From the NCBI GenBank assembly GCA_034521575.1, contig JAXHMJ010000002.1, forward strand, positions 30,706 to 94,705: a stretch of 64,000 nt of DNA. The letters run 5' to 3'. The position numbers and the translations under genes were made by a program. The notes under the pieces were generated by a model. The model searched no databases. It had not been told where the DNA came from and worked only from the letters and a program-made list of their open reading frames with translations. Positions 1 to 64,000 of this stretch are shown here, piece by piece. Source of the stretch: Candidatus Zhuqueibacterota bacterium (lineage in GTDB: Bacteria > Zhuqueibacterota > Zhuqueibacteria > Residuimicrobiales > Krinioviventaceae). Each line of letters opens with the position of its first letter. Position 1 is the first letter of the stretch.

Positions 1-860
1 CCTCGGTCCTGATTACCGGAGAAAGCGGCACCGGCAAGGAACTGGTGGCCAATGCCCTGCACTATCGGAGCAACCGGCGCGGCAAACCGCTGGTCAAGGT
101 CAACTGCGCGGCGCTGTCCGATAATGTGATAGAGAGCGAGCTGTTCGGGCATGAAAAAGGTTCGTTTACGTCGGCGATTTCACGCCGGATCGGCCGTTTT
201 GAACTGGCGGATACCGGGACGCTGTTTCTGGACGAGATCGGAGATATTCCGTTATCGACTCAGATCAAGTTATTGCGCTGCTGGAGCAAAAAGAATTCGA
301 ACGGCTGGGCGGCAATGAGACTATTAAAGTGGATGTGCGGGTGTTGGCGGCCACCAACCGCAATCTGGAAGAGTTGGTGAAACGCGGAGAGTTTCGCGAA
401 GATCTTTATTACCGATTGAACGTCATTAATATGCACATGACGCCGCTGCGTGAGCGCAAAGGTGATATTTCATTGCTGGCGAATCACTTTTTGGGTAAAT
501 ACTCGACGCAAATGAACAAACGCATCAGTCGAATTTCCAAATCGACGCTAAAGATGCTGGAATCTTATACCTGGCCGGGTAATGTGCGTGAACTCGAGAA
601 TGCCATTGAGCGCGCGGTGGTCTACTGCAAGGCCGCCATTATTACGGAAGCGGATCTGCCGGGCAATATCCAGGACGAAGAAGGTGAAACCACCATTTCT
701 CTTCGTCTGGCTTCCTGATAAACTCATGGAGGCGGAGAAAAAACTGATCGAGCTCGTCCTGAAACGCGCCAACAACAATATGAAATACGCGGCCGAGATG
801 CTGGATGTCAGTCGCGGCACATTGTACAGCAAATGTGAAAAGCTCAAAATTAATCGATAA
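1..860 (+). CDS. sigma-54-dependent transcriptional activator (AAA+ sigma54-interaction domain plus C-terminal Fis-type HTH). It is 5'-truncated by the window edge and split over three frames by two apparent 1-nt indels (near 279 and near 705).
   Basis: ORF-track pieces 45..380, 329..718 and 582..860. Motifs seen: GESGTGKE (Walker A), [15 protein letters not shown] (GAFTGA-loop variant GSFTSA), [37 protein letters not shown], and [22 protein letters not shown]. Frames join if one nt is restored at ~279 (LLR|VLEQ) and at ~705. Confidence 0.8.
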
Positions 861-897
861 CCGCAAACGATGCGGCTTGTAACAGGCCGGAGGCAGA

Positions 898-2074
898 ATG
901 AAATTATATGAATATCAGGCCAAGCAGCTTTTACATGCGCGCCGGATCGCTGTTCCGCCGGGCAGAGTGACGGATAGCGCAGAACGGGCTGGAGAGATAT
1001 TTGTTGAGCTCGGCGGCAAGCCGGTGGCCGTCAAAGCGCAGGTGCATGCCGGCGGCCGCGGCAAGGGCGGCGGTATTAAAATTGCCAAAACGGAAAAAGA
1101 ATGTCAAAGCATCGCGGAATCCATGCTCGGGTCCAATTTGGTGACCCCGCAGACCGGCAAAGCCGGCCTGCGGGTCCGCGAGGCCTGGATTGAACCGGCG
1201 GCCGCCATTCGTTCCGAATATTATGCGGGCATTGCCCTGGACCGGGATGCCCGAAAACTGGTGTTTATGGTCTGCAGCGAAGGTGGCGTCGAGATTGAAC
1301 AGGTCGCCTATCGGTCCCCGGAAAAAATATTCAAAGAGCATATCGACACCGCCCTGGGACTGCAGGTTTTTCAGGCGCGCCGACTGGCGTTCAAACTGGG
1401 ATTAAAAGACAACGTGCATCAACAGGCGGTTCAGCTTTTTTTAAATTTATACAAGACATTTGTTTCTCTGGATTGCTCGCTTTTGGAAATTAATCCGCTG
1501 GTGGTGACACAGGACGAACGCCTGCTGGCGCTGGACGTCAAGATGAACATTGATGACAATGCGTTGTACCGGCAGACGCAGTTAACTGAAGCATATGATC
1601 CCGCGCTTGATCTGGCGCCTTTGGAACGCAAAGCTTATGAATTTAACCTGAACTATGTCAAACTGGACGGCCATGTGGGCTGCATGGTCAACGGCGCCGG
1701 ACTGGCTATGGCCACTATGGAATCTGATCAAACTGGCGGGCGCTTCGCCTGCCAATTTTCTCGATGTCGGCGGCGGCGCTTCGGTGAAAACCATCGAAAA
1801 CGGATTCCGCATCCTGTTATCCGATTCCAATGTTAAAGTGGTGTTTGTCAATATCTTTGGCGGCATTGTCCGCTGTGACCGGGTGGCGGAGGGTATCATC
1901 CAGGCAGCCGGCAAGATCGGTGTGTATCTGCCGTTTGTGATCCGCTTGTCCGGAACCAATGCGCAGGAAGCCGCCAAAATTATCAAACAGTCGCCGGTCC
2001 CCTTTTCAATGGCTCCCTCGATGGAAAAAGCATCTGAACTTGTTATGGATATTCTGGCAGGAGAACAATCGTGA
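898..2074 (+). CDS. sucC: succinyl-CoA synthetase beta subunit (ADP-forming). One apparent 1-nt insertion near 1722 splits it into ORFs 898..1836 and 1655..2074.
   Basis: ATP-grasp N-terminus [12 protein letters not shown]...[15 protein letters not shown]-terminal CoA-ligase part [14 protein letters not shown](D)[18 protein letters not shown]...[10 protein letters not shown] continues in the second frame. The extra 'a' lies in 'atggaatctgat'. Confidence 0.88.
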
Positions 2075-2949
2075 GTATTTTAATCGATCATCAGACCCGT
2101 GTTGTGGTTCAGGGTATCACCGGGCAGGAGGGTTCATTTCATACCCCGCAAATGATCCAGTACGGCACATCCGTTGTGGCGGGTGTGACGCCCGGTAAGG
2201 GACAGACCACCTTTAAAGATGAAGTGCCGATATGTGATACGGTCGAAGAATCCGTCCAAACTTACCGGGCCAACGCCTCCGTCATTTTTGTGCCCGCGCC
2301 GTTTGCAGCGGATGCGGTGATGGAAGCGGCGCACGCCGGCATCCAGCTGATCGTCTGTATTACCGAAGGCATTCCGGTGCTGGATATGCTCAAGGTGACC
2401 GATTATACAAAAAAGCACGGTGTCCGCCTGATCGGACCGAATTGTCCCGGCATTATCACTCCGGATGAATGCAAAATCGGAATTATGCCCGGATTTATTC
2501 ATAAAAAGGGCAATGTAGGCGTGATATCACGCTCCGGAACGTTGACCTATGAAGCCGTTTACCAGATGACACAGATCGGAATTGGACAGAGCACAGTCGT
2601 GGGCATCGGAGGCGATCCGGTGATCGGCACCACGTTTATCGATCTGCTGCGTTTGTTTGAAGCGGATGAAGATACGAACGCGGTGGTGTTGATCGGTGAA
2701 ATCGGCGGCGCTGCGGAAGAAAAAGCGGCTGCGTACATTGCCGATCATATGAGCAAACCGGTGATCAGTTTTATTGCCGGACGCACCGCCCCGCCCGGAC
2801 GCAGAATGGGGCACGCCGGAGCCATTATCAGCGGCGGCAAAGGCACCGCATCGGACAAGATGGCTTCACTGGCGCGCGCCGGCGTACATTTGGTGGAAAA
2901 TCCCTCAGAGATCGGAACCATGGTGGAACATGTCCTTTCAAAACAATAG
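2071..2949 (+). CDS. sucD: succinyl-CoA synthetase alpha subunit
   Basis: GTG start overlaps the sucC stop (tcGTGAgt). Motifs: [17 protein letters not shown]-like, SRSGTLTYE (the phospho-His region precedes it), IGGDPV. Length 292 aa. Confidence 0.92.
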
Positions 2950-3583
2950 GCCGTATCAGCGCATCACGCGGGATCAGGCCCTAAAATCGGCACGGCATCG
3001 GCATTTGCATGATCCGCAAGAATTCCCCGAACACGCCCGTTATTATTATTGTGTACTGAAATTCGAAAAGAGTCAGTTTCAACGCTGGCAGCAAAAAATC
3101 ATGGAAAGAGGGCTGCGGGGCGAAATTGCCATGGCGGTTACCGATCCCGACGAACAGATTTTGCTGCACACCAAATCGTTTTATCCCAAAGGGACGTTTC
3201 GTATCCCGACGGGCGGCATTCATCCGGGTGAACCCGCGGACCGGGCCCTGCCGCGAGAACTGTATGAAGAAACCGGATTCAAAATGCTGCGGTATTCTGC
3301 GCCGGCGGTTGTGCTTTACGAGTTTCGTCATGAACAGGATTGTTTATCTTTTCTGTCATTTCTTTATCATGTGATCCCGGACCGCACCGAACCGGTCATC
3401 CACGATACAAGTGAAGAAATCACAGAGTTTATCTACAAGCCCCTGTCTTTTCTGGACTCTGTGATCCAGACTCTGCATTCCCTGCCCACTGCGGGGTGGC
3501 GGGACTGGGGACGCATGCGCTCTGTGTGCCATTTTATTCTGCTTGAACTGGCCTCGGACGGTCTGCTGCAGTTTCCTGATTAA
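2930..3583 (+). CDS. NUDIX-family hydrolase. The start is uncertain; 3101 is an alternative.
   Basis: Nudix box [23 protein letters not shown] (GX5EX7REUXEEXGU). Confidence 0.6.
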
Positions 3584-5801: not shown

Positions 5802-6257
5802 ATGGACACAGACGTATTATTGCGACGCTATCCCGAGAAAGATGCGTCCGCACTGATCCCGCTGCTTCAGGATATACAGGAAAGTTACGGTTATCTGTCG
5901 GAACCTGATCTGGCCAAAGTGGCCGGTTACTGTGACGTTCCCCTGTCGCGCATATACGGTGTGGCGACTTTTTATAATCAGTTCAGACTGCAGCCTCTGG
6001 GCAAGTATGTGATCCGTGTTTGCCGCGGAACCGCTTGTCATGTTAAAGGTTCGGGTGATTTACTGACCACACTTGAGAATGAACTCGGCATCAAAGCCGG
6101 TGAAACCACCAAGGATTTGAAATTTTCCATCGAAACCGTAGCTTGTATCGGCGCCTGTAGTATTGCGCCGGTGATTGCGATTAATGATGAATTTTACGGA
6201 AAACTGGATAATAAGAAAGTCAAGAAAATACTCAATGATCTAAAGTCTGAGGAGTAA
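5802..6257 (+). CDS. hydC: [FeFe]-hydrogenase NuoE-like [2Fe-2S] subunit (HydC/HndA family), operon 1
   Basis: Thioredoxin-like 2Fe-2S motifs CRGTAC...CIGACSIAPV. GAGAGG RBS. 151 aa. Confidence 0.88.
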   Translation: MDTDVLLRRYPEKDASALIPLLQDIQESYGYLSEPDLAKVAGYCDVPLSRIYGVATFYNQFRLQPLGKYVIRVCRGTACHVKGSGDLLTTLENELGIKAGETTKDLKFSIETVACIGACSIAPVIAINDEFYGKLDNKKVKKILNDLKSEE

Positions 6258-6260
6258 AAC

Positions 6261-8267: not shown

Positions 8268-8281
8268 AACAGAGGAATACA

Positions 8282-9993
8282 ATGAGAATAACGATAAATG
8301 GAAAAGAATGCTGGGCCAATCCCGGAGAAACCATATTAAAAGTGGCTGAGCGGGAAGGTATCAATATCCCCACTCTTTGTTATTTAAAAGGCCTTTCTCC
8401 GACCGGTTCCTGCCGAATCTGTATAGTACAAGTTGACGGCGGCCGGATGGCGCCTTCCTGTGCGTTCCCGGTTTGCGAAGGCATGAACGTGGAAACCAAC
8501 TCTGCCCAAGTGCGCCGGGCGCGAAAAACCATTATTGAATTATTGATTGCCAATCATCCTCAGGATTGTCTGAACTGTGTCCGCAACGGCAACTGTGAAT
8601 TGCAGACGCTTGCCGAGGCTTATGGTGTACGCAGCAAGCGCTACATCGGTGAGCGCCGCAAAGCCAAACTGGATGTGGCGTCTCCGTCGATTGAACGCGA
8701 TCCGGAAAAATGTATTTTGTGCGGCCGCTGTGTGCGCGTTTGTCATGAGGTTCAGGGTGTCGGCGCCATTGATATCGCCAACCGCGGATTTCAGAGTACG
8801 GTGATGCCGGCGTTCAATCACAGTCTGAATACCGTGGCTTGTGTGTTCTGCGGTCAGTGTGTGGTCAATTGTCCCGTAGGCGCGCTGCGCGAAAAAAGCC
8901 ATGTGAAAAAAGTTTGGGAAGCGCTCAATGATCCGGACACGCTGGTGGTTTCACAGATCGCTCCGGCGGTACGTGTGGCTCTGGGTGAAGAGTTTGGACT
9001 GGAACCCGGTACCGTGGTGACCGGCAAAGCGGTGAGCGCGCTGCGCCGCATTGGCATGGATGTGGTGTTTGATACCAATTTCAGCGCCGATCTGACCATC
9101 ATGGAAGAAGCCACGGAACTGGTGTCGCGTCTGCAAAATAACGGCACCATCCCCATGCTGACCTCATGCAGTCCCGGATGGATAAAATATATAGAACATT
9201 TTTATCCCGAACTGCTGGAGCATGTGTCGAGCTGTAAATCCCCGCATCAGATGCAGGGTGCGCTGATCAAATCCTACTGGGCGGAGAAAAGGGAATCGAT
9301 CCGGAAAAGATTTTTGTAGTATCTATTATGCCCTGTACTGCCAAAAAATATGAAGCGCAGCGTCCGGAACTGGGAGATGAGCATCAGGATGTAGATGCGG
9401 TACTGACCACGCGCGAGCTGGCGCAGATGATAAAAACAGCAGGAATCGATTTTACCAGAATAGAAGATGATCATTTCGATGATCCGCTGGGCGAATCCAC
9501 TGGCGCGGCTATTATTTTCGGCGCCACCGGCGGTGTGATGGAAGCGGCGCTGCGAACCGCCCATTACAGCCTGACGGGTACGGAATGCGCTGATATTGAA
9601 TTCAAACCCATCCGCGGTCTGGAAGGCGTGAAGGAGGCTGAGATTAAGATCGACGGCACCGAACTCAGGGTTGCTGCGGTCAACAGTCTCAGCCAGATCA
9701 AATCTCTGCTCGATGATATCCGCGACGGCAAATCGCCGTATCAATTCATTGAAGTGATGGCCTGTCCGGGCGGCTGTATCAACGGCGGCGGTCAGCCACT
9801 GCCCTCGGATGCGGAAAAAACTGAAAAACGTATGCAGTCCATTTACAAGATCGACCGCGGGCTGCCGAAACGCTGTTCGCACCAGAATGAATCAGTGCAA
9901 AGACTGTATCAGGAATTTCTGGAAAAACCGAACAGCCACAAAGCCCACGAACTGCTGCACACACATTACGTCAAACGCACGGAAAGTGTCTAA
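8282..9993 (+). CDS. hydA: [FeFe]-hydrogenase catalytic subunit (HydA, group A multimeric type), operon 1. It is split by an apparent 1-nt deletion near 9283 into 8282..9319 and 9328..9993.
   Basis: N-terminal 2Fe-2S and His-ligated/4Fe-4S ferredoxin modules (CRICIV, HPQDCLNCVRNGNCELQ, CILCGRCVRVC, CVFCGQCVVNCP). H-cluster motifs TSCSPGW (L1, non-canonical), MPCTAKKYE (L2) and EVMACPGGCINGGGQP (L3). Paralog alignment with the 18606 gene shows a missing 't' in 'aaaa(t)ggg'. Confidence 0.85.
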
Positions 9994-10002
9994 TATCATA
10001 TT

Positions 10003-12412: not shown

Positions 12413-12430
12413 ACAGGATAGGGAAACAGA

Positions 12431-14301: not shown

Positions 14302-14350
14302 AGCGGCATAACACTGCCGCGACAGAGGTCAACCAACGGAGGACATCTGT

Positions 14351-16951: not shown

Positions 16952-18546
16952 ATCACATATACTCATCGCAATGGACGCTCACACGATAGCCCAGGGTGCC
17001 CGTGCCGTCAAGGAGGCTCTCGTGCGTGAGCTTGAAATGGCAAATCTCGGCAATGAGGTCAAGGTTGTTGAAACCGGCAGTCTGGGAATTTACAACAAGG
17101 GCGTGGTTCTGGTTGTGTTTCCGGATGCGGTTTACTATGCCGGTGTCAAGGTGGAAGATGTATCCGAGATTATTTCCGAGCACATTATCAAAGGGCGCAT
17201 TGTCGAACGTCTGCGCTATACCGACGTACCCGAATACAAAGAAGGCGAACAGGGCGAAGCCCCGCGCTTTGGCAAACAGATACGCGTTGTGTTGAAGAAC
17301 GCCGGCAATATTGATCCGGAAAGCATTCAGGAATATATCGCGAATGACGGTTATGAAGCGCTGGGACGTGCATTGACCGAGATGAAACCCGGTGAGGTGC
17401 TGGAAACCGTGAAAAACAGTGAACTGCTGGGACGCGGCGGCGCGTTTTTTCCCACTGGATTGAAATGGAGTTTTGCCGCAGCTGAAAAAAACACGCCCAA
17501 ATATATTGTCTGTAACGCCGATGAAGGCGAACCCGGCACATTTAAAGACCGGTTGATCCTGGAAGGCGATCCGCACCTCATTTTAGAGGGTATGGCACTG
17601 TCCGGATACGCGGTCGGCGCATCCATGGGCTATATTTACATTCGCGGTGAATATAAAATGTCCATTGAACGCATCAACCGCGCCATTGAACAGGCGCGTG
17701 AAAACGGATTGTTGGGCGAAAACCTGTTCGATTCGGATTTTTCTTTTGATATTGAGGTGCGTGAAGGCGCAGGCGCCTATATCTGCGGTGAGGAAACCGC
17801 TTTGATTGAATCGATCGAAGGCAAACGCGGTGAACCGCGTGATAAACCGCCGTTTCCGCCGTCAGAAGGTCTGTGGGGTAAACCCACAATCGTCAATAAT
17901 GTGGAAACTCTGGCCAATATTCCGCCGATTCTGCGCAATGGTCCGGACTGGTTCAAGAAAATGGGAACCGAGAAAAGCCGCGGCACCAAGGTGTTTACCA
18001 TGGTCGGCAATATCAACAATCCCGGATTGATCGAAGTGCCCATGGGCATCACGCTTCGTGAAATCATTTACGATATCGGACATGGCATTCCCAACGGCAA
18101 GGGCTTTAAACTGGCTCAGATGGGCGGCACCACCGGTGGTATTCTGACGGAAGAACACCTGGACATGCCCATGACGGTTGAAAATCTGCGCAGTGTCGGA
18201 GCCGGTCTGGGTTCGGGCGCTCTGCTGGTGGTTGATGAGTCTCAGGATGTGGTTGATCTGGTTCGCAATTTTGTTGAATTTTTCAACCATGAATCCTGCG
18301 GCAAATGTACACTGTGCCGTGAAGGCAACGGTCGACTGCTGCAGCTGCTGGATAAAATCCTGGACGGTCAGGGAACCGTTAAAGATATTGAATTGATGCA
18401 AGAATTTGGCACAGACCATGATGAAAGGCGCGTTCTGCGGCCTGGGTCAGGCCGCTCCCATTCCCGTGCTGGGATGTCTGAACCATTTCAGGAAAGATTT
18501 TCTGGCGGTTGTCCAAACCGCAGCGTCTGAAATTGAAGCTGCCTGA
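16944..18546 (+). CDS. hndC: NuoF-like flavoprotein subunit (HndC/HydB family), operon 2. An apparent 1-nt indel near 18405-18417 moves the last ~40 aa into another frame. It has no fused N-terminal HndB domain and no C-terminal ferredoxin tail.
   Basis: GRGGAFFPTGLKW, HESCGKCTLCREG. Then TMMKGAFCGLGQAAPIPV...AASEIEAA in frame +1, matching the NTSLCGLGQTAANPV tail of the paralog. Confidence 0.85.
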
Positions 18547-23589: not shown

Positions 23590-26377
23590 ATGAAGTCTTA
23601 TTTCCTGTTAGTGCAAGTGTTCATCATCCTCTTTACGGGGATCGTTCTGCAACCGCAGCGTGTATGCCCAACGAAGCGGAAGCATTGAAGGCAGAGTTAT
23701 AGATGCGGAAAGCGGAGAGTATTTACCCGGGGCAAACATTTACCTGGAGGGTACACAGATCGGCGCTGCCAGTGATGCGAACGGATATTTTACAATCGAA
23801 AATGTGCCTTTTGGAGACTATACCTTAAAGGTTACCTACATCGGATACGAAGAGTTTTCAAGCGAGGTCGAATTAAAACCATCTGATGCCAAAGTAAACA
23901 TCGATGTCCCCATGAATTTTACTGCGCTTGAATTAGATGCGTTTGTCGTAGAAGGTTTAAGACAGGGGCAGGTTAAAGCATTGAATCAGCAGAAAAATGC
24001 GGCCAACATTAAAAATGTCGTGTCGAAAGAAGAAATGGAAAAATTCCCGGATATGAACACGGCTGAAGTTTTACAGCGGATTCCCGGCATAGCAGTTGAA
24101 CGCAGCCTGGGTGAAGGAGCGTTTGTTATGCTGCGCGGAACAGAGCCTCGTCTTACCAATGTTACCGTAAATGGACAAAAAATTGCCACGCCCCGTGAAC
24201 AAGACAGATTTATCGGGCTTAATGTGGTCAATGCGAATCAATTGGCATCTATAGATGTCACAAAAGCCAGTACGCCTGATATGGATGGTAGTGCAATCGG
24301 CGGTACGGTCAATCTGGTGACACGCAGTGCGTTTGATTACCAGGAGCCCCGCCTTAATGTGAATCTGGGCAGCGGCTATCAAAAATTGGGAAACGATCCG
24401 CTTTATCGCGCTTCACTAAACTATAGCACCTTTTTGAATAAAGATAAAACAATCGGTGTCACGGTCGGCGCCAGCTGGTACAGAAATTCCATTACAGCGC
24501 ATTCCAATGAATTTGATTGGGAAGATGTTGAAGATATAAACGGGAACGAAATTGCTGAAGCGTTGACTGATTTAAAGATTTTTAATTATGAGACAAATCG
24601 AGACCATATCGGTTTAAATGCCGGGATCGAATTCAGGCCCTCCAAAGACCACAGATATTTTATTAACGCCATGTACAACAAGCGGACCGATGATATGGAT
24701 AGAAATCAGGTCCGTTATCGTTTTGACAAGGGAGATTATCTGAATGCGACGACAATAAGCGGTGGTCGCGTGGCTTTTGAATTGAACAGCCGGAATGAAA
24801 TACAGGATCTGTATGCCTTTACCGCAGGCGGTCAAAATAAATTCGGACTTTTGAACCTGGATTATACACTATCCTATAGTCATGGTGAAGAATATACCGG
24901 TGATAACGGACACATAAAATCCGAATGGCAGATAAAAAATATCGATTATGCATTGGACCTGTCGGACGTAGATTTTCCGGGTGTTAACATCACCAACCAT
25001 GAGCAAAGCTATTTTTTCAATCCTGAAAACTGGAATGAAGATAAACAACAATATAAAGATAGATTTGCTTCGAATGATAATTTTAACAGCGCTGTTAACG
25101 TAAAATATCCCTATTATCTGGGTGCTTTTCCGGCAGAGTTTAAAGCCGGTGGTAAATTAACGATTGACCAAAAAGATCGAAACAGTCGTCGTTATAATTA
25201 TAGATGGCGCGGTGATTATGATCTCGGCATGTTTGGGACGACCGGAGAAACGATAGATGATTTATTACTTGACAATTACACATTGGGTCCCATAATGGAT
25301 GGTGATAAAGCGAGCGAGTTTTTACAGAACAATCTCGATCCCGACAATGGCTTCCGCAAGGAACCGGTGAATGATAGCGAGGATGGTTTTGGCGGTCAAT
25401 ATGAGGGTTCCGAAAGCATCTATGCCGGTTATTTAATGACCACGATTCACTTTAATGAATTGATGGTTTTGGCCGGTGTGAGAAGCGAATTAACGCAAAC
25501 GACGTATGATGGAATCGAGCTTCAACTGGATGATGACGGAGCGATTGTGAATGACAAACCCGTTTCCCAGGAAAATGATTATGTCAACTTTTTCCCCGCT
25601 GTGCACTTTCGGTACAATATATCTCCTATGACAAATGTCAGACTTGCCTATACTCAGGGTATTGCCAGACCCAATTATTTTGATTTGGCTCCGTACCGAT
25701 GGATTATTCCGGATGATAATGAGATCGTTGCCGGGAATCCGGAGCTTGAGCCGACTGAATCAAAAAACATGGATTTAATGCTGGGTCATTATTTTCAAAG
25801 TGTCGGCGCTATCAATGTAGGGTTGTTCTATAAAAGTCTGGACAAGGTCATTTATCCAGCGGCGACTCGAATTGAAGGCGGCAACTATGACGGTTATGAC
25901 GAAATAATGCAGGTTAACGGCGGAACAGCGGACTTGTATGGTGTTGAAATCGGATGGATGCAGCAATTAACCTTTTTGCCGGGCTTTTGGAATGGATTCG
26001 GCGTCTATGCCAACTATACCTATACCCAGGCTGATGTTGATCTCACCTATGCAGACCGTGATGTGCTTCCCGGCCAGGCGGGTGATGTCGGTAATGTAGG
26101 ATTAAGTTTCGAAAGAGGCGACTTGACCGCCCGTTTGAGTTTTAATTATACTTCGGAAGTGCTGGTTGAGGTTGAAACGGATAAAGAATTCGACCGCTGG
26201 AACGACGAACGGCTCCAGGTTGATTTTTCAGGATCCTATGAGTTTATACCCGGCTTTGAATTCTATATCGATGCCGTCAATTTGACAAATGCAGTTAAGC
26301 GTGTGTATTACCATATACCTTCTCGTCCAGAGAAAATGCGTATTATGGCATCTCCGTACGCTCTGGTATTAAAATGA
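23590..26377 (+). CDS. TonB-dependent outer-membrane receptor (CarboxypepD_reg-like N-domain + plug + barrel). An apparent indel near 23650 separates the signal peptide from the mature part.
   Basis: MKSYFLLVQVFIILFTG signal after an ACGGAGG RBS. Next frame continues YAQRSGSIEGRVID...ANIYLEGT (CarbopepD_reg). Plug motifs EVLQRIPGIAVERS, VMLRGTEPR. Terminal aromatic end. Confidence 0.8.
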
Positions 26378-36726: not shown

Positions 36727-39174
36727 ATGTCTACTCAAAAAAAAATCACGGTTTTTTTACTAGTCGGAATTCTGTTCATGTTGACGACCAGCAGCAATTC
36801 CCGGGAAACCGATAAAAGCACAATTGCTTTCTGGCCATTCGATGAGCAGCAGGGGATTTATCCGAGTTGTGTTCTGTCTGATTTATCTGACGATGATTAC
36901 CCCTGGTTCTCGGTTTGGGCGGGAAAATCTGAAACGGTAAATTCGGAAATGCCTTGCTACCGGTCGGACAAGCAGAGTCCGATTTTGTAGAGATTGAAGG
37001 AATGGTGAGATTTGGTTTGGACCAACTGCCCGTACCTGATGGGCGGAGTGTAGAGCCAATGTCCTGGTTCAATGCCGACTTTGCCGCTTTAATGACAAGC
37101 GGAGAAACTCACCTGCGCAAAGAGGTCGGTTTCCCCCAGGTTACTCAAACAGATTTAAATCTTGGTGATTTTGACTGGACTGTGGAATTCTGGTTTTACC
37201 CGTTGCGCAAGACTGATGAAACCGGAACCGTTTTTGAGATAGGGACGGGGCCCAGAGGGGAGAACCGGATTTATACCACATTGAAACTTGACCGGGATAT
37301 GGGACAATTTATCTTTTATAATCAACCGAGCCGAACTCTGATCGAGATTCCTTCGTCGCTTGAACCGGAGGCATGGCAGCATCTTGCGTTTGTATATGAT
37401 TCAAGAGAAAACCAATTGACTTATTTTGTCAATGGAAAGATGATCAGCCAGGAGAATTCTGAAGCGTTAAAGCCGCTGCCGGTGGGTGAAGAGGATTACA
37501 TGAGTGTGGGAAGAAACGGTTTGTGGAAGGAACCCCTTCAAGGCAAAATTGATGAATTGAGGTTTTCTCAAGGTATGATATATCCGGATAAATTCACGCC
37601 GCCCCAAAGTTTCTCTTATCTGCATGATCTGGAACAAACAAATAATTTGATTGCCGGGCCTGAACTGTTATTCGATGGTGAAAAACTTGATCAACCCATC
37701 AAACTGGGCTCTCGAAAACATCTTTTTATTGATGATGCCCTCCTTGAAACAACCGGAGACGCTGAATTTGTTGTCAATCCTCCGCGTATGGAAGAAATTG
37801 TTTTAACAAATATCAAGGGACATATTCGAAAACATCTCAGTGTTGTTGAAGATAAAGACGGAAACATTCGTATCTATACCACGGTTGAGGATGACTATTT
37901 GGCTGTATGGATTTCAAAAGATGGAGTTCATTTTACAGCGCCTGATTTGCCGAACGGACACTATAAAGGTCGTACCAATATTGTCCTGCATAAAAATGTG
38001 GGCATGGGGATTGTCTTTACTGGATCCCCACGCGCCTGATGATGAACGCTATACAATATAAGCGACTATCACCGCAGGGCTGTTTCCATATTTTATTCCA
38101 AAGACGGTTTGAGTTTTGAACGCTATAAACAGCCTGTGCTTCCGTTCCGTTCGGGCTCGCAGGCCAATATTTATTATGATGATCAAAAACAGGTCTATAC
38201 GACATTTCACCGATCAGATTTCGGCCGCACCCGGACCGGGGATACTCAGCGTGACTTTGTGATGACGGAAACAAAAGATTTATTACGACCCTGGCCGTTC
38301 ACTCCTCTGACTCCGGCTGAAACAAAAGAAAGAGCCGAGGGAAAACGGATTGCTGAATACAGGCCCTGGTATCTTGATAACGGTCCTCTGACTCCCGGCG
38401 GTTTCTCTTTGGAATACCCCTGGATTTTTTCGCCAATCGACAGCCTGGACCCACGGGAAACGGATGTTTATATTCCCAAAGCTCATAAATACCCGTGGGC
38501 ACCGGATACGTATGTGGCTTTTCCTGTGATGTATTTTCATTATGAGGAATCATTACCGGAAGAAAGAAGTATCCTTTTCGAGGAAAGCAGGCAGCTCGGC
38601 TCCGGGCCGCTTGAGACTCAATTTTCGGCAAGCCGCAACGGCGTTGACTGGCAACGATATCCAAGACCCGCATATGTCGGCATCGGCAGACATCAGGGGA
38701 TTGATTTTGTAACCGCTTATATCGCCTACGGCATGGTAAAACGTGAGAATCAAATCTGGCAATATGTGTTCTGTGAACCGCATTATCATGCACCCTGGGT
38801 AAAATATGATGATAAAAGATCCGTGATCAGACTGGTTCAGAGACTTGACGGTTTTGTTTCACTCGATTCTCCTTATGAGAAAGAGACAACGGTTATCACA
38901 AAACCTTTGGTTTTTAAAGGCAACAGACTTGTCATCAATATTGATACCGAAGCGACGGGCTATGCACAAGTCGGATTATTGGATGAAAATGGAACCCCAA
39001 TTGAGGGATTCGCCGTCGATGAATGCGTTTATATCAACGGAGATTTCCTGGGAAAAAGAAATAGAGTGGATGCAGAAAGGTAAAGATATATCCGAGCTCG
39101 CCGGAAAAACGGTACAGATTGTTCTTGAGATGAGAGGCTCAAAGTTATACGCTCTGCAGTTTACAAATGAATAA
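36727..39174 (+). pseudogene. copy A of the triplicated LamG-like + BNR/Asp-box propeller secreted protein (~830 aa). It is broken into at least four frames (indels near 36960, 38040-38100 and 39050) and may be an artifact-ridden or decaying copy.
   Basis: Pieces 36709..36990, 36954..38039, 38109..39083 and 38845..39174 each align colinearly to the intact paralog 39205..41703 (WFNADFAALMTSGETHLRKEVGF, GKIDELRFS, YLDNGPLTPGGF, ...RGSKLYALQFTNE). Confidence 0.7.
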
Positions 39175-41733: not shown

Positions 41734-44231
41734 ATGTTGAATTATAAAGTATTGCTTGCTGTCATTGTCTTTTTTTACGCAACTCTGTTATCCGCCCCCA
41801 AAGAGGATCATACTGTATCTCTCTGGCTGTTTGATGAACAATGCGATTTATATCCAAGTCAGGTTTTAGAAAACAGTTCGGAACATAATTTGCCGCTTGT
41901 ACTCGGCCCGGGCGGAAGAATTGTTAAAGGTAAATTTGGAAATGCGTTCGAGCCCCTGATGCATCCTAAAGTTGAGCTGCCCGAGGGTGAAAAAAAGTTC
42001 GGGCTTGTAAAGCTTGATCCTCCTCCGGGACGCACCGTTGCGCCTTTGACGTGGTACAATGCCGAGTTTTCGGCGTTGATGACAAGCGGCGAAACGCATC
42101 TGCGCAAAGAGGTCGGGTTCCAAAGCCCGGCGGCGACTGCAATGAATCTGGGCGATTTTGACTGGACCGTAGAATTCTGGTTTTATCCCAATCAGAATTC
42201 TGATATTGGAACGGTCTTTGAAATTGGCGCCGGACCCAGGGGGGAAAATGAAAAATTGACACGTCTCAGTCTGGATCTAAAGAACCGTTCATTTAATTTC
42301 TTTAACCCAAAGATTCAAAGCGCGGTTACTCTGCCTACTGAGCTCACGTTTGAAACATGGCATCATGTTGCATTTGTGCATTTCGCTGATAACGACAAGA
42401 TTCTCCATTTTGTAGATGGAAAATTATTGTCGACAGCGAATAACGTCACTATCGGGAAACTCGAGCCTTCCTTTGCCGAAGATTATATGAGCATTGCCCG
42501 GGACGGTCTGTGGGAACATCCTCTGCAAGGTAAAATTGATGAATTGAGATTTTCGGATGATGTAATTTATACAAATGAGTTTAATCCGCCTGAAAGCTTT
42601 TCCAGTATTTATCAGGAAGGATACGTTGCGGATCAACTTGAAAAAGGCCCGCCTCTGTTGTTTGATGATGAATCCAGGGATGATACGCCGCTACAGCTGG
42701 GCGGCAGAAAACATCTGTTTATTGATGATGCGTTTCTTGAGACCGTCGGCGATGTCGAGTTTACGGTTAATCCCCCTGAAAAAAAGAACTGGTAATGGGT
42801 AATATTAAAGGCCCCTTTAGAAAACATTTAACCGTTATCGAAGATGAGGATGGATTAATCCGCATCTATAATTCCGCCCATGACGATTTTATGATTGTTC
42901 ATACATCCAGAGACGGCGTAAATTTTAAAGCTCCCAATACCGGTACAAGCTATCGCGGCAGGGATAATATTGTGATTCCCGAACGTGTTGGCGGTAAAGG
43001 CACTCCTTTTATCGATCCGAACGGCAAAGGCGATCATAAATGGAAATATATATCCAGTTATCATAACCGCGGTGTTTACCTTTATACCTCTGCGGACGGC
43101 TGGAGCTGGAGCCGCCGGAAAATGGCTTTAATTCCTTTTAGAAGTGGCACGCAATCCTGTACATTTTATGATGACCAGCGGCAGATGTATGTTTCAACCC
43201 ACCGGACCGGTATATTTCATACACCGGGCGGCGCCACTCGAAGAAGTACAGTCATTACTCAAACTGAGAATCTGTACAAGCCTGTCAAATATGAACCTCT
43301 AAGCCAAAATGACTATTGGGAACTGGATAAAAAATACCGACTGCGCGAACCACAGCCCTGGTGGCTTGACAATGGTCCGTTGACCCCCGGTGATTTTGGG
43401 TTGGAATTTCCGCATGCCTTTGATCCAACCGGGGACGATCCCGTTGGAATGGATATTTATGTAACCAAAGCTATAAAGTACGAGTATGCTCCGGATACGT
43501 ATATCTCGTTTCCGATCACTTATTTTCATTATGAAGAAGATGGACCGCTGACACGACAGATATTAATAGATTCGACTCGACTGCGGGGAGCCGGACCAAT
43601 TGAAACCCAGATCGCTGTGAGTCGCAATGGGCTGGACTGGAAACGGTATTATCAACCCGCGTATGTTCCCATTGGAAAACATGGGGGGATTGATGTAAAG
43701 ACCGCCTATATCGCACAGGGTATGGTCAGGCGTGGAAATGAACTGTGGCAGTATTATTTTGCTGAACCGCATTATCATTCCGCCTGGGTAAAATATGATG
43801 ACAAGAGAGCGGTATTTCGACTGGTGCAACGATTAGACGGATTCATATCAATTGACAGTCCGTATGAAAAAGAAGCCGTGATCAAGACAAAGCCGTTTGT
43901 TTTTGAAGGAAACCGGCTGGTCCTTAATATTGACACCGATGCGGTAGGGTATACTCAGGTTGGTTTTGTGGATGAGCATGATAATCCGATTCAAGGCTTT
44001 TCAGTGGATGATTGTGTTTACATCAATGGTGACTTTATTAAAGAAAAAGCTGAATGGATTCAAAATCGCGAGGAATTTACAGATGTGAGTATTGGCGAGG
44101 GTGAATCGACTGAAATATTGGAAAAAGTAAAGACGACAAAAGATGTTTCTCCGCTTGAAGGTAAAGTGGTAAAACTTGTTTTTCGAATGAGAGGGTCAAA
44201 ACTCTATTCTATGCAGTTTTTGAACGAGTAA
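41734..44231 (+). CDS. copy C, about 95% nt identity to copy B. One frameshift at an A7-versus-A8 homopolymer near 42785 splits it into 41734..42795 and 42795..44231.
   Basis: Near-identical nucleotide sequence to copy B, including the 30-bp upstream spacer. 'cctgaaaaaaagaactgg' versus 'cctgaaaaaaaagaactgg' in copy B. Confidence 0.75.
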
Positions 44232-48501: not shown

Positions 48502-50072
48502 ATGAAATCAAAACTTGCACTCTTTATTTTATTAGCTGCAGTTTATTCTTTTGCTCAGGTAAAAGGACCTGCAACCCGACTTGTTGAACGTGATGGATAT
48601 TCACAAATATTCTTTATTGCCAAAGACGGCTCTGATGAGATGAATAGAGGAACAAAGGATAATCCTTTTAAAACCATTCAATGTGCAGTATCAAACGTCA
48701 AAAATGCAACTGGATCAAATAGAATTGCACTATTTGTTTCTAAAGGGATATATGATGGAGAGACAATTGCTCTGAAACCGTTTGTCGATTTATATGGAGG
48801 CTTTAATCGTGAATCCTGGGAAAGAGATGTTGGATTATACCCCACTGAAATCAACATTAAAAACGAGCAAAGAGCAATCATAGCAGATGATAACTGCATT
48901 ATAGATGGGTTCGTCATAAGCAACTCGGAATATCGTGGAAAAGGAGCCGCTATATATTGTGATGGCGCTTCACCCACAATTTCGAATAACAAATTTATTC
49001 ATAATAAATCCCTAAAGCCCCTTGACTGGAATCCGGAATACTGGCATGAAACGGCAAATGACGGCGGGGCAATCTACGGTAAGGATGGCGCCGCACCTTT
49101 GATCAAGAATAATTTGTTTGCTCATAACAAAACTGAAAACGGAAGAGGCGCTGCCATTGCTTTCGATAACCAATGTGATCCTCAGATTCTCAATAATGTT
49201 TTCTTAAAAAATGAGAGCGGATTGGATGATCCCATGAGGAGCAGTGACGGCGGCGCTGTTTCGATTTTTCGTTGGAGTAAAGGGTTGATTGACGGAAATA
49301 TTTTCCTTGGCAACTATGCTGGTTCCGAAAATGATGCCGGTGCTGTTTTTATTGCTTTATGGAGTTCGACCCTTGTTAGAAATAATATATTTGTTGATAA
49401 TGAATGCACCGATGATGCCGGTGCTTTGTTCGTCGGTGGACAAGAGCACAGGTATGATGCACCGCTTGACCCATACCCGCGCCGGGAAAACTTTTACGTT
49501 ACAATCGAGAATAATGTTTTCATCGCCAATCGAAATCCGTCCATGAACTCAGGCGCCATGCGCTTTACCATGGAAAGCAGAGGCGAGTTTGTCAATAATA
49601 TTGTTGCACAGAACAGCGGGATTTATTTTCAAAGAAGCGAAACCGAGATCAGAAACAATGTTATATTGGACAACATGCTTGTCATTGAAACCAAGGATTA
49701 CCTGGACAAAACAGTAATTAGAAACAATATCATCTGGGCTGATTTTGTTTTGCAGGAAACCGTTGCAGAGATTCACGATAATTATATGCTGCAGGCGGAA
49801 AAATTCAAAGGGAATAAAAATGAATTCCCGGATTTTTTGACAACGGAATTAATTTATCTGTTTTGTCGGCCCGAAAGGCTGAGCATTATTCCGAACTGGT
49901 TATTCAAGATGAGAAGGAACTTTTACCCGAAAAAATATCAGATCGGATCGTCAATGCTGGAGGCCGTTGGGGGGTGGTAAAGGATTATGACAACCATATT
50001 CTGCGAGTGTGGGGAGATTTTCCCCGTGTTACATCATTAAATATACTGCCAACATTTACTTTGAATCATTAA
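48502..50072 (+). CDS. secreted right-handed parallel beta-helix (pectate-lyase-fold, PbH1-repeat) protein. A T6 homopolymer at 49833-49838 probably hides a frameshift that joins 48502..49980 to 49863..50072.
   Basis: Signal MKSKLALFILLAAVYSFAQ. Repeated NNxFxxN / GGAIY units (ISNNKFIHN, IKNNLFAHN, ILNNVFLKN, VRNNIFVDN). Confidence 0.65.
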
Positions 50073-50084
50073 CGGAGGAATGCT

Positions 50085-52537: not shown

Positions 52538-52541
52538 TGGA

Positions 52542-53729: not shown

Positions 53730-55429
53730 GTGAGATCTTGTAAAATTATAGTCATTATTTGCATTGGTTTTTTGATAGCTGGATGTCAGCAACAAGAGTA
53801 TGAATTCAAATCATTAAGTGAATACGGACAATTTGCTCCGCCCGATGCGTTTGAAGAAAATGCGGAATACGCTTATTACGGCAGTGAAAATGAATGGAAC
53901 CGGCGTATGTTTTCAGAAAATGCCACATCAAAGTATTACAAGCGCCAGGGGCAAAGACAATTACTGGAAATTTTGGATGGTCATTTTGATAACGCCATTC
54001 GCATTTGTAAAAATACACTTGATGTACAGCCCCATGATTTGGAATCCTGTTTCAATTTATCCATTGCGTTTTCCCAAAAAAGTGAAATCGATTCGGCGCT
54101 CTATTATATGAAGCTTGCTTTACATAACGGGCTTCCGTTTACCAGATATCTGGCCGGACCGAAAGATTTGCTCCAACCGATTTATGAAACCGACTATTTC
54201 AAAAATCTCAAAAAAGAAAAAGATATAAAATTGATTCACGGACCCATGAAAGGCGCTGTTACAACGACGAGCGCCAGAATTTGGCTGCGTACTGCTGACG
54301 AATCCGAGGTGGAAATTGTTGTCAGTAAAAATAACAGAGATGTGATTGGCGCTTTTAGCGGGAATACAGAAGCAGTGAATGATTACAGCGTGGAAATTCC
54401 TGTCACCGGTTTAGAACCGGATACTGAATATACTTTTCAAATCTCGATTGATGGAAAACAAACAGCAAAAAACTACTCTCTCAAAACTTATCCGGAAAGT
54501 TATAAGGATAAAATTGCAATAGGTTTTGGCGGCGGTGCCGGGTACACGGATAAGCATGAAAGAATCTGGGATACGCTTGCGTCTTATTCATTGGATGCTT
54601 TTTTGATGCTCGGCGACAATGTATATGTCGACCTTCCCGAAATGCCCGGCGCTTTTCATGATTATACGTATTATCGCAGACAATCAAGACCGGAATACAA
54701 AAGATTTCTGCAAAGCACAAACATCTATGCAATTTGGGATGATCACGATGCGGCCATAGATGATATTTGGATGGGACCTTACCTTGACAAGCCTGAATGG
54801 AAACTGCCGATGCTGCGTCATTTTGAAAGACAATGGGTTAATCCATTTAACGGGTTGGAGAAGCGCCCGGCAGTTATTTTAATTTTTCCATAGGCGAGAT
54901 TGAATTGTTTATGCTCGACTGCCGGTTTTATAGAACGAATCCTTACAAGGAAGAGCGGACAATGCTCGGGCCGGATCAAAAGAAATGGTTGAAAGAAAAA
55001 ATTCTTGAATCTAAAGCCAAAGTAAAAGTAATCGTATCATCTGTGCCATGGGCGTTAGATGCAAAACCGGGAAGTAAAGATACCTGGGCAGGATTTGAAG
55101 CTGAACGGCAGGAGATTTTTAAATTTTTGACGGACCATACAATTGACCGAGTCATTCTCCTCTCAGCGGATCGCCATAGAACCGATGTCTGGAAGATTGA
55201 ACGTGATCATGATTACCCGCTTTACGAATTTCAGAGTTCGCGACTGACGAATATTCATACTCACCCGGTCATGCCCGAGGCGTTAATTGCATATAATGAA
55301 AAATGTTCTTTTGGATTACTCGAGTTTGATTTGAGTCAAAATAAAATAGGTTTCAATATTATCAGTATTGATAACCAGTCAAAGGGTCGTATCACAGTTG
55401 ATCTGGATGAACTGCAATCGAACAGATAA
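53730..55429 (+). CDS. PhoD-like alkaline phosphatase/metallophosphatase lipoprotein. An apparent C3-versus-C4 homopolymer frameshift near 54870 splits it into 53730..54893 and 54905..55429.
   Basis: Lipobox LIAGC. FLMLGDNVYVD and GSYFNFSIGEIELFMLDCRFYRT blocks typical of PhoD. Confidence 0.7.
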
Positions 55430-56490: not shown

Positions 56491-57427
56491 ATGAATCAGC
56501 AAATCGCACCCCGGGATGTCCTGGGGCAGACGTTGATAGAATTGGCGGAACAAAATGAGGATATTGTGTTGCTGGATGCCGATTTTAATCCGGCTTCAAA
56601 AATAAATTCATTCGAAAGACCGATTCCCCGAACGTTTTTATCAGATTGGTATCGCGGAACAAAATATGATGGGCATTGCGGCCGGTCTGAGCACCACCGG
56701 TCTCATACCTTTCGTATCGACGATTTGTACCTTTTGTTCCAGACGCGCCTGTGATCAAGTCACCACCTCGATCGCTCTGCCTCGATTGAATGTAAAAATA
56801 ATGGGACTTTACGCCGGACTATTTGTGGGCAAGAACGGCGCGTCGCATCAATCACTGGAAGATATTGCCATTATGCGCGCGATCGCCAATATGACGGTTC
56901 TTCAGCCGGCGGATGCCCGGGAAACGCAAGCCATATTGCGGTATGCTTTGACCTATGACGGGCCGATGTATATTCGCATTGGCCGCGATCCGGTTCCGCA
57001 ATATGTCCCGGATGATTATGAATTTGAATTGGGCAAGGCATTGACGCTTCGCGACGGGAAGGATATCACATTGATCGGTTATGGAGATTTGATCGGTGAT
57101 ACCCTTGCAGCAGCCGATATTCTGAGCAAGAAAGGCATCAAGGCGCGAGTGTTAAATATGAGCTCTATCAAACCGATTGATGAAAAAGCGATCATACAGG
57201 CGGCCCAGGATACAGGTTATATTCTTACAGTAGACAATCATAATATATACGGCGGTGTGGGCTCTGCTGTTGCAGAAGTGCTGTCTGAAAACCGGCCCAC
57301 GAAGATGAAACGTGTGGGAGTCCGCGATGTGTTCGGCAAGTCTGGATCAAACGAGGAAATGAAAGAGAAATTCGGACTGACACACTCGGATATCGCCAAT
57401 GAAGCATTGACCTTGTTGCAAAAGTAA
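56491..57427 (+). CDS. transketolase, C-terminal (pyrimidine-binding/transketolase-C) subunit. An apparent indel near 56600 splits it into 56491..56754 and 56666..57427.
   Basis: KDRFPERFYQIGIAEQNMMGIAAGLSTTG continues in frame +1 from the first ORF. Confidence 0.8.
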
Positions 57428-59259: not shown

Positions 59260-60580
59260 ATGGCGTATTATCGCAATCGTCGGTCTTTTCTCAAAACGAG
59301 TGTATTGACTGTATCATCACTTGTTTTAACAGGGGTTAACTGTTCGTCTAAAAACGCGACGGAAGAGAAATCCAAGCAGCCGAACATTATATTTATACTG
59401 GCGGATGATTTGGGATGTGAAATTCCGGGAGTTTATGGCGGTGAGACGTACAAAACGCCGAACGTTGACGCCCTTGCCCGTCGCGGTATCCGTTTCACAC
59501 AGTGTTACAGTTCCCCGGCATGCGCGCCTTCGCGTGTTAAACTGTTAACAGGCAAATACGGTTTTCGTAATTATATCGGATGGGGGGCAATGAAGGATAA
59601 AGAACGAACCTTTGCTCATGTTTTAAAAAATGCCGGTTATAAAACCGCAATTGCCGGGAAATGGCAAATGGTTTTGCAAAAAAATGAACCGGATCATGTT
59701 CAGAAAATGGGCTTTGATGAGAGCTGTGTGTATGGGTGGCATGAAGGCCCGCGCTATTACGGGCCGTTTATCTACGAAAACGGCAAACCGCGAAAAGAAC
59801 CGGATGATCAATATGGCCCGGATATATTCTGCAAATTTATAACCGATTTCATCAGAAACAATCAGGGATTCCCCTTTTTTGGCCTATTATTCTATGTGCC
59901 TGCCGCATGAGATCAGCAATGACTTGCCTTCACCGCCGCCCACCGGCCCTGATGGACGCTATCAGACCTATAAGGAGCTAATTGAAACAATGGATATACT
60001 GATCGGACGAGTTGTAAAAACACTCGACGAGTTGAAGATATGCGAGGATACGCTGATTTTGTTCGCAGGAGATAACGGAACTCCGCCTGCTTTTATTTCA
60101 CGATATGAGAATGGCGAATATATAAAAGAGCCTTTATATTCAATTGTGAATGGTGAAAAAGCTATCGGAGGCAAGAAACAGCTCACAGATGCCGGTACCC
60201 ATGTGCCGTTGATCGCCAGCTGGCCGGGAACCACACCGGCAGGGACGGTTTGCGATGATCTGGTCGATTTTACTGATTTTCTGCCTACTTTTGCCGACTT
60301 GGCTCATACTTTGCCGCCTGAAAATCTGACTATTGACGGCATTAGTTTTTTACCGCAAATTCTGGGTCAAAAGAATCCAAATTCAAGAAAGTGGTCTTAT
60401 TGCCAATGGGATGGACAGGCCTGGGTTCGCACAAAACATTTCAAGCTCTACCGCGACGGCCGGTTTTATGATATGAAACGTGATCCTTTGGAACAATCAC
60501 CGATAGATCATGATACAGCAGCGAGCAAAAGGGCGAGAACAAAATTAGTAAAAATTCTCAGCCTTTGTGACACCAACTGA
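59260..60580 (+). CDS. sulfatase (formylglycine-dependent). An apparent T6 homopolymer frameshift near 59885 splits it into 59260..59910 and 59879..60580.
   Basis: Signal. Signature CAPSRVKLLTGK (CxPxR). The second ORF continues YYSMCLPHE...LFAGDNGTP. Confidence 0.8.
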
Positions 60581-62745: not shown

Positions 62746-62879
62746 AGTTCCTGGAGAAGAATAATCGTTCCGGTAATGCAGGGTGGGAACGTGTGGGGAA
62801 TAGATGCTTTAACTTTATCTTTGCATTTTTGCATGAAAATGAGTAAATAGTAAAGCTCACTATGGGTTAATCATGTTCA

Positions 62880-63581
62880 ATGAGTACAAGGAGACCCGAG
62901 AATATGAATGTCAATCTAAAGAAAGAACAACACGCATCCAGAGAGAGACCCCGATATCCCTATTCGCTTGCGGCAAAAGCCTTTTTCTTTTCTATGGACT
63001 TGATCACCGGTAAAAAAATTACCTTGGCCAAGGCCAAACTCATAGAGATGCTGGCAAGCATCCCTTACCGATCCTGGGAAATTCGCCAGTACGCTCGAAT
63101 GACACGATGCTACCGAAATTCAGAGTTGGTTCAAGAAGCATCCAATATTTTAAACTGGAGTCGAGAAGCGCAGGACAACGAATTCTGGCACCTGATGGTC
63201 ATTGATGAGAAAATGAAAAAAGATGGCGTAAAAGAGCCCTGGTATCTGTTCCCTGTTTTCCCCTTTGTTATGGTTACTGTTTATGTTATCCTGACGCGCC
63301 TTGTGGCTCTGGTGAGCATTCGCAGAGCGTTTCTGTTCAATGCAGAATTTGAGGATCATGCTGAACACGTCTATGCACAATTTGTGGACGAACATCCTGA
63401 ATGGGAAAATGAACCTGTTACGAATAAAGTCAGGGAATATGCAAATCTGGATAACTGGGCCGATATCTTTAGGCGTATTGGACTGGATGAACGGGATCAC
63501 ATGAATAACAGTTTTGTCTTATGCGGCAAGCCGGAACGTGTTGTGAAATATGGCGGCATGCCTGATCTGCCCACAGTTTAA
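62880..63581 (+). CDS. alternative oxidase (AOX/PTOX-family di-iron carboxylate quinol oxidase)-like protein. A start at 62904 after an AGGAGA RBS is possible.
   Basis: Four-helix di-iron motifs in order: IEMLASIP (LET-like), NEFWHLMV (NERMHL-like), EFEDHAEHVY (LEEEA-like), DERDHMN (RADEAxH-like). Confidence 0.65.
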   Translation: MSTRRPENMNVNLKKEQHASRERPRYPYSLAAKAFFFSMDLITGKKITLAKAKLIEMLASIPYRSWEIRQYARMTRCYRNSELVQEASNILNWSREAQDNEFWHLMVIDEKMKKDGVKEPWYLFPVFPFVMVTVYVILTRLVALVSIRRAFLFNAEFEDHAEHVYAQFVDEHPEWENEPVTNKVREYANLDNWADIFRRIGLDERDHMNNSFVLCGKPERVVKYGGMPDLPTV

Positions 63582-63759
63582 AGCCTTGATTCAAGAGTGA
63601 TCCATCGGTAAATTGACAAAAGCTCCGGATGCAAGTGTTACTATTGAAAACAGGGGACAGGAGGGGGCAAACGCGTTTATTGACGCATGATTGGCAGGAA
63701 AATATTTGTCTGAAAACGCAAAGCATGCTATCATCACAATATAATGAGGAGAGCCCCCG

Positions 63760-64000
63760 TGAAATCCATTTTTATTCTGTTTTCAATTGTTCTTGCGACA
63801 TCTGTAGTGTCACAAACGCCAGAGGTCGAATATGTTACCGGCAGTACGGTGAAAATCTCACAACTCGTCGGTGAATACGGACCGTATCAATTTGACGAAC
63901 TGGCAACCGGAACCGATTCCACCACCACTCTGTATTACACCCTGTCCACATGGAATCCATATACGGTTATGCTCATGAAATCCACGTTAAAACTTTCAAA
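63760..64000 (+). CDS. 5' part of a secreted protein (GTG start, signal peptide), truncated by the window end
   Basis: GAGGAGAG RBS followed by VKSIFILFSIVLATSVVSQ, a typical signal peptide. Open to the window end. Confidence 0.5.

Follow-up and report, generated by a model that had tools for sequence, protein, structure and literature searches.

Why do the proteins encoded in one stretch of a bacterial genome break off so often in one reading frame and resume in the next? The stretch, 64,000 nucleotides of contig JAXHMJ010000002.1 from a Candidatus Zhuqueibacterota bacterium (the window, along which all positions are numbered), contains at least 23 single-base lesions: 12 insertions, 10 deletions and 1 garbled patch. 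These break about 15 of its roughly 49 genes, about one third, and the density of frame breaks is far above that of an accurate genome. The breaks are very probably residual single-base insertion or deletion (indel) errors of a long-read consensus that polishing left uncorrected. An earlier note on this DNA had likewise preferred sequencing or assembly error to biology. That preference is borne out by intact relatives, by lesions that are single-base indels only, by equal dN/dS (nonsynonymous over synonymous substitution rate) in broken and intact genes, and by a source assembly made with metaFlye from MinION R9.4.1 reads.

Every gene of the window is on the + strand, and overlap between a long open frame and a neighbour in an adjacent frame is common. 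A Pfam scan finds conserved domains divided between frames: Sigma54_activat (profile positions 24-120 then 112-167), Fe_hyd_lg_C (3-117 then 117-245), Sulfatase (1-169 then 162-300) and GntP_permease, which lies in three pieces (2-96, 92-178 and 179-440). The PhoD, Transket_pyr, Ligase_CoA and NADH_4Fe-4S domains are likewise cut at frame breaks. When the window was compared by blastx with the open reading frames (ORFs) of 160 fetched loci, the same subject protein ran on from one frame into another at each site, and the subject ORFs across the junctions were uninterrupted, often dozens per site. At sites without a close relative, junction positions were scanned against homologues or a paralogue. 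The split domains and the continuing blastx subjects uphold the claim that protein sequence resumes in the adjacent frame. All 18 breaks that the earlier note listed in conserved genes hold, some displaced by 10-60 nucleotides (nt); the list was incomplete, at least five further lesions being present. Most of its coordinates were close, with ~36960 moving to 36900 and ~59885 to ~59862, and the break that it placed at ~38050 is real but consists of two lesions, +1 at 38019 and -1 at 38056. A single frameshift at ~36960 was rejected, since a 94.5%-identical relative shows a deletion at 36900 plus a patch at 36926-36935. In two cases, neighbouring sites are separated by fewer than 40 nt.

Two close relatives place these lesions in the window. 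WJMF01000178.1, from a KSB1 metagenome-assembled genome (MAG) built with megahit, contributes loci L001 and L166, which are 85-88% identical to, and syntenic with, 29.1-59.1 kb. CAZSMC010000012.1, built with SPAdes, contributes loci L002 and L167, which are 90-94.5% identical over 20.5-27.9 and 35.9-44.2 kb; Logan contigs of other runs are identical to it. The earlier note had proposed checking whether siblings carry intact versions, and these short-read assemblies do so at every site that they cover (18/18). Where two relatives cover a site, both put the gap at the same column, agreeing against the window; all remaining gaps that the DNA alignments place within coding sequence are multiples of three. 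Relative to these independently assembled genomes, the indels are private to the window assembly. Dozens of distant homologues also span the junctions intact.

A scan of JGI metagenomes with the ABC-F protein found only relatives of at most 55% identity, some of which confirm sites 279 and 1722. Exact look-ups of several window proteins, seeking the same population in other assemblies, returned no record. A query in which the repaired peptides around six sites were joined found about 100 intact PhoD proteins covering the phoD junction; it returned no short-read fragment at 100% identity, its match list being filled by PhoD homologues.

The window comes from a nanopore-based assembly, the MAG ASO49. 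Its intact proteins are exact matches to NCBI entries MDZ7721747 to MDZ7721793 (candidate division KSB1, locus tags U5R06_), and the NCBI contig that holds them is 1,173,084 bp long. ASO49, a KSB1 MAG from Salar de Ascotan soil, has an N50 of 1173084 and comprises 5 contigs and 5.26 Mb; it is the only KSB1 MAG in its table, and its completeness is 92.1% with 4.4% contamination despite the 5 contigs (PMC10673233, Table S3). The study assembled MinION reads (FLO-MIN106D, R9.4.1) with metaFlye; Medaka, Polypolish and POLCA served for polishing (PMC10673233). Its soil-sample reads, from Illumina NovaSeq and MinION, belong to BioProject PRJNA1023877. Frame-shift errors are documented in MinION-based MAGs, where they lower CheckM completeness (PMC7966762).

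Four Logan contigs of run SRR26473340, which we infer to belong to the ASO49 project, are 100% identical to the window (1.2-2.3 kb each, 7.3 kb in total), and they include none of the sites. Of their eight ends, three are 13-37 nt away from a site (54861, 56614 and 59862; binomial p=0.0013): L162 starts at 54884 and ends at 56585, and L163 ends at 59847. The other five ends (6156, 8274, 11675, 12833 and 57507) are not near a detectable site. None of eight broken products that the protein collection contains as they stand occurs in Logan, compared with 4/10 of the window proteins looked up. The matching, independent read set thus appears to lose support where the frames break.

In the mechanism that we consider most likely, the nanopore consensus would leave scattered indels, short-read polishers would repair them where depth allows, and the survivors would sit where accurate coverage is too thin. 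By default, Polypolish requires five observations of a base. Low short-read support at the sites would then be the direct cause, and the short Logan contigs suggest a low-depth genome. The window resembles R9.4.1 metagenomes with indel errors (PMC7966762; Arumugam et al. 2019, Microbiome 7:61, cited there) in its private single-base indels, the resumption of protein in the neighbouring frame, megabase contigs with imperfect marker scores, and split or truncated annotation. It differs from them in that its assembly was polished with short reads, its errors are sparse and lack homopolymer enrichment, insertions and deletions are about equally common, and a G recurs after C four times. The sparsity (about 1 lesion per 2.7 kb of coding sequence) is due to the short-read polishing.

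The individual sites are given below, with the strand, the change in the window relative to the true sequence (+1 or -1; inserted bases in square brackets) and the basis of each call.

275..283, + strand: -1 at 279 in a sigma-54 enhancer-binding protein, CGC.TGCTGG, outside any run; Sigma54_activat is split, homologue L084 spans the junction, and the best junction is STQIKLLR/xLEQKEFER.
691..716, + strand: +1 at ~700-716 in the same sigma-54 regulator, between the AAA lid and HTH_8; AAA_lid_14 is in frame 1 and HTH_8 in frame 2, the translation joins at ...TTISLRLA, and the base is approximate.
1719..1724, + strand: +1 at 1722 in sucC, GGA[A]TCTGATC; ATP-grasp_2 and Ligase_CoA are in different frames, four intact homologues span the site, and deleting one A restores ATMDLIKLAG.
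9286..9292, + strand: -1 at 9287-9290 in the [FeFe]-hydrogenase gene hydA1, A4 where A5 is needed; called from the split Fe_hyd_lg_C and a junction scan, HydA being a single 570-aa protein in relatives.
18401..18407, + strand: +1 at 18404 in copy 2 of the hndC/nuoF-like gene, T3 in place of T2; the cut in NADH_4Fe-4S falls at profile position 52/85, the junction was scanned against the paralogue at 6261-8267, and frame 0 runs on as LAQTMMKGAFCGLGQ.
23659..23661, + strand: +1 at 23660 in a TonB-dependent receptor, GC[G]TG, parting the signal peptide from the mature protein; alignment to L167 (90.5% nucleotide identity), where the receptor is intact at 931 aa.
26326..26328, + strand: -1 at 26327, newly found, towards the C-terminal end of the TonB-dependent receptor, C2 in place of C3; the relative's protein ends in ...PRENAYYGLSVRSGIKMTL and a stop, and the window carries that tail in the neighbouring frame.
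27749..27752, + strand: -1 at 27750 in sulfatase 1, C2 where C3 is needed; about 25 intact homologues across the junction and alignment to L167; as it stands, the product has 443 aa, where relatives at >=90% identity have 488 aa.
31643..31648, + strand: +1 at 31645 in otnK, a four-carbon acid sugar kinase; SBD_N and NBD_C are in different frames, with the same gap column against L001 and L167.
32652..32657, + strand: -1 at 32654 in gntP, between GntP_permease 2-96 and 92-178; gap against L001 and L002.
32907..32912, + strand: +1 at 32910 in gntP, between GntP_permease 92-178 and 179-440; gap against L001 and L002.
36531..36533, + strand: +1 at 36532, newly found, in a metallophosphoesterase, GC[G]AA; alignments to L002 (94.5% identity) and L001, and a blastx junction.
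36549..36551, + strand: +1 at 36550, newly found, in the metallophosphoesterase, TC[G]TA, with loss of the C-terminus; alignments to L001 and L002 plus blastx; product of 264 aa against ~312-321 aa in relatives.
36899..36902, + strand: -1 (T) at 36900 in LamG/BNR copy A; alignment to L002.
36926..36935, + strand: garbled 4-nt patch, newly found, in copy A, ATCTGAAAC against ATTGTGAAC, best read as a probable -1 T plus +1 A; it makes an in-frame TGA at 36930-36932, so that the window reads GKI-stop-NGKF where L002 reads GKIVNGKF.
38018..38020, + strand: +1 (A) at 38019 in copy A; identical gap against L001 and L002.
38050..38058, + strand: -1 at 38056 in copy A, with four clustered substitutions; a conserved WKY motif is destroyed.
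39048..39052, + strand: +1 at 39050 in copy A, G3 in place of G2; more than 40 homologues cross the junction intact.
42779..42785, + strand: -1 at 42779 in LamG/BNR copy C, A7 in place of A8; the sole gap in a 96%-identical alignment to paralogue B, which is intact in the window with A8, and the same gap against L001 and L002.
49826..49830, + strand: -1 at 49827 in a beta-helix protein, C3 where C4 is needed; alignment to L001 and about 30 intact homologues.
54859..54863, + strand: -1 at 54861 in phoD, A2 where A3 is needed; alignment to L166, where PhoD is intact at 566 aa.
56613..56615, + strand: +1 at 56614 in the transketolase C-terminal subunit, TC[G]AA; alignment to L166, where TktC has 311 aa.
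59860..59868, + strand: +1 at ~59862 in sulfatase 2; split Sulfatase domain and junction scans against three homologues, the best junction lying upstream of the T6 run; the base is approximate.

The earlier note had described the breaks as lying mostly at homopolymers, and this does not hold. In a permutation test of the sites against random positions of the same interval sizes, we found no enrichment for runs of at least 3 bases (14 overlaps, 10.8 expected, p=0.11), at least 4 bases (5, 4.6 expected, p=0.50) or at least 5 bases (1, 1.8 expected, p=0.85). The A7 at 42779 is the only one of 434 runs of at least 5 bases in the window that carries a lesion. Of the ten deletions, six fall in a run of at least 3 and shorten it (A5, C3, C3, A8, C4 and A3); three of the twelve insertions extend a run, and sites 23660, 36532, 36550, 36900, 38019 and 56614 lie outside runs. 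Among four runs to which breaks had been attributed, the A7/A8 of copy C was right, and the T6 of the beta-helix gene, the C3 of phoD and the T6 of sulfatase 2 were wrong. A G inserted after C and before A or T accounts for 4/12 insertions (23660, 36532, 36550 and 56614), which looks like a systematic context-specific consensus error and not random noise.

Since the errors are not homopolymer-driven, a pyrosequencing type, or any platform with homopolymer errors only, is excluded; of the two technologies that had been suggested together, the long-read one is supported. The window does share with 454 and Ion Torrent data the frameshifts caused by single-base miscounts, its run-shortening deletions falling in runs of 3-8. 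It departs from such data in that most insertions and several deletions lie outside runs, only 1/434 runs of at least 5 bases is hit, and the source combines MinION with Illumina. Ten methylation motifs were tested. Seven sites have a GATC within 8 nt, where 3.0 would be expected (p ~0.02), and GANTC behaves similarly, but both signals fail multiple-test correction, and CCWGG gave nothing. Methylation motifs as a cause of the nanopore errors are thus a weak hint.

Several points weigh against long-read consensus error as the explanation. The dominance of homopolymers usually described for R9.4.1 is absent, insertions are about as frequent as deletions, and the G after C recurs. Illumina polishing should remove most such errors, so that low short-read depth is needed, and that depth is suggested only by the short Logan contigs (1.2-2.3 kb). 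The closest relatives are different species (90-94.5% identity) and show the ancestor, not this population. At all sites the evidence is at the level of assembled sequence.

A different artefact, in which the consensus was built over mixed strains or near-identical paralogues and short-read coverage gaps played no part, is unlikely. On this reading, assembler and polishers would have averaged reads that conflict, and garbled patches would be the outcome. The errors do cluster: copy A, with two paralogues downstream, has six within 2.5 kb; the patches at 36926-36935 and 38050-38058 combine an indel with several substitutions; and two pairs of sites are less than 40 nt apart. The contig ends near sites would also fit, because de Bruijn assembly breaks at polymorphic positions too. 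Yet most sites are clean single-base changes in single-copy genes, copy A has about 50% protein identity to copies B and C and is too distant for reads to be confused, and the Logan contigs match over 7.3 kb without a mismatch, so strain diversity is not evident. A contribution of strain or paralogue mixing to the clustered garbled patches of copy A is possible.

Genuine recent pseudogenisation, for example in a mismatch-repair-deficient mutator or under relaxed selection, is very improbable. Many genes are broken, several of them in one polysaccharide-utilisation region, the evidence on the sites is at the level of assembled sequence, and the one larger lesion, a 279-nt in-frame deletion between short repeats in a DHDPS-family gene, could be a real mutation. 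Against this, the broken genes are under normal purifying selection, which has left the same mark on them as on intact genes. Compared with relatives, the 10 broken genes examined have a median dN/dS of 0.151, the 13 intact ones a median of 0.136 (Mann-Whitney p=0.83). In copy A, the worst-hit gene with five or six lesions, a three-way comparison that polarises changes onto the window's own branch gave 12, 11 and 35 substitutions at codon positions 1, 2 and 3 (chi-square p=7e-5 against uniform), and the intact orthologue has 9, 6 and 31. The pattern of copy A resembles that of the intact orthologue and is unlike that of a pseudogene. Relaxed selection on the broken genes was thus not found, either in dN/dS or in the codon-position bias of copy A.

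The spectrum of lesions also argues against pseudogenisation. The roughly 23 lesions include no simple nonsense substitution (the TGA at 36930-36932 lies inside the garbled patch) and no mobile-element insertion, and coding density is high. Assuming that 20% of genuine lesions are nonsense mutations, a set of this size would lack them with a probability of 0.5%. Central genes are affected, including sucC and both hydrogenase sets. Mutator indels favour homopolymers, which the window sites do not; contigs of the matching run stop at three sites rather than confirm them; and the source is a nanopore assembly. In host-restricted bacteria undergoing genome decay, such as Mycobacterium leprae and Sodalis, many genes are interrupted by frameshifts, and the window resembles them in the large fraction of genes frameshifted. 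It differs from them in lacking relaxed selection, nonsense substitutions and insertion elements, in its high coding density, in belonging to a 5.26-Mb genome from salt-flat soil, and in having orthologues in sister lineages that are all intact. We give equally little credence to the idea that some or all indels are real and reflect a very recent frameshift burst in a free-living KSB1 bacterium, for instance after loss of a repair function, too young to have left a trace in substitutions. In a weaker version, only the DHDPS deletion and a fusion of PdxA with OtnK may be real.

Decoding of the breaks by programmed ribosomal frameshifting or transcriptional slippage has next to no chance of being right and is effectively refuted by the intact orthologues: A runs can support slippage, as in endosymbiont genomes, and site 42779 does lie in an A7 run, but the sites have no common slippery motif, orthologues are single-frame at every covered site, the neighbouring paralogue has an in-frame A8, and several genes would need two to six events.

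The consequences of the frame breaks are already in the public record. The earlier note predicted that automated annotation would call about 15 pseudogenes and split genes, key hydrogenase subunits among them. The prediction is borne out: NCBI lists the fragments as ordinary proteins, separate or truncated, and HydA1 falls between the consecutive accessions MDZ7721751 and MDZ7721752, without a protein entry. The affected entries include the following.

MDZ7721745: N-terminal half of SucC, named 'ATP-grasp domain-containing protein'.
MDZ7721766: sulfatase of 443 aa rather than 488, with a wrong C-terminus.
MDZ7721770: 540-aa PdxA that runs on into OtnK.
MDZ7721773: truncated metallophosphoesterase, 264 aa.
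MDZ7721778 and MDZ7721779: the two halves of copy C.
MDZ7721783: truncated beta-helix protein.
MDZ7721791: N-terminal piece of TktC, named 'hypothetical protein'.
MDZ7721794: N-terminal piece of sulfatase 2.

Truncated, split or chimeric-tailed forms of about 15 proteins from these 64 kb are thus now in public databases. If the rate holds over 5.26 Mb, the assembly would contain on the order of two thousand frameshifts, and metabolic reconstruction, pseudogene counts and the completeness of the MAG would then be biased. With the frames restored, the predicted products are HydA1 of about 570 aa, the TonB receptor of about 931 aa, sulfatase 1 of 488 aa, OtnK of about 390-400 aa, GntP of about 440 aa, the metallophosphoesterase of about 312-321 aa, LamG/BNR copy A of about 823 aa and copy C of about 832 aa, the beta-helix protein of about 525-540 aa, PhoD of 566 aa, TktC of 311 aa and sulfatase 2 of about 445 aa. 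For users of the genome, re-polishing or frameshift-aware gene calling is advisable. The finding is a commonplace defect in the quality of one deposited MAG; it carries no new biology, and its value is as a quality flag.

There are also two larger irregularities. Relative to its 303-aa orthologue in L166 and to homologues in L004 and L061, the DHDPS-family gene (51896-52537) is short of 279 nt, or 93 codons, without loss of frame. The deletion point, at ~52182, lies between two copies of ATCTT; the middle of the enzyme is gone, and the Pfam match covers only 2-89/289. Either a genuine deletion or a collapse in the assembly would explain the gap. In the region 30054-32277 (junction ~31062-31110), PdxA continues into OtnK as one open frame, the run-on lying at ~31095. 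L001 has the two genes in different frames, overlapping and with a TAA stop, and in L167 a distance of 217 nt separates them. The run-on is either a real fusion or the product of further junction errors.

Between same-frame neighbours, the stops at 6257/6258, 9993/9994, 50072/50073 and 56490/56491 were considered as selenocysteine or nonsense codons; they are ordinary gene boundaries, which the relatives covering these positions share. At 48463-51059, the beta-helix protein and the HpcH/HpaI-like aldolase that follows it are parted by a stop at 50070-50072, and likewise in L001/L166; many distant relatives, L018, L015 and L044 among them, have the two as one frame of 830-1,100 aa. LamG/BNR copies B and C (39205-44231) are a tandem duplicate differing at 104 of 2,514 nt (96% nucleotide identity), and the short-read contig of the closest relative (L002) stops within its B-like copy, as expected if the repeat collapsed in that assembly.

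The window also changes in composition along its length. G+C falls at ~20.4 kb, from ~0.49-0.53 (1-20400) to ~0.40-0.46 (20400-64000). The hydrogenase and two-component block before this point has its nearest database relative at 71% protein identity, and the sequence beyond it has relatives at 85-94% nucleotide identity. Within the block, at 5802-20345, two [FeFe]-hydrogenase gene sets (hndA, hndC/nuoF-like and hydA) lie on either side of a gene at 10003-12033 whose product combines an Fe-hydrogenase large-subunit domain with a histidine kinase. The region also contains two response regulators and another kinase; its layout is conserved in L079 and L080 and looks like hydrogen-sensing regulation. 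Finally, CTAG occurs only 3 times in the 64 kb, where other 4-nt palindromes occur 113-458 times and base composition predicts an estimated ~245.

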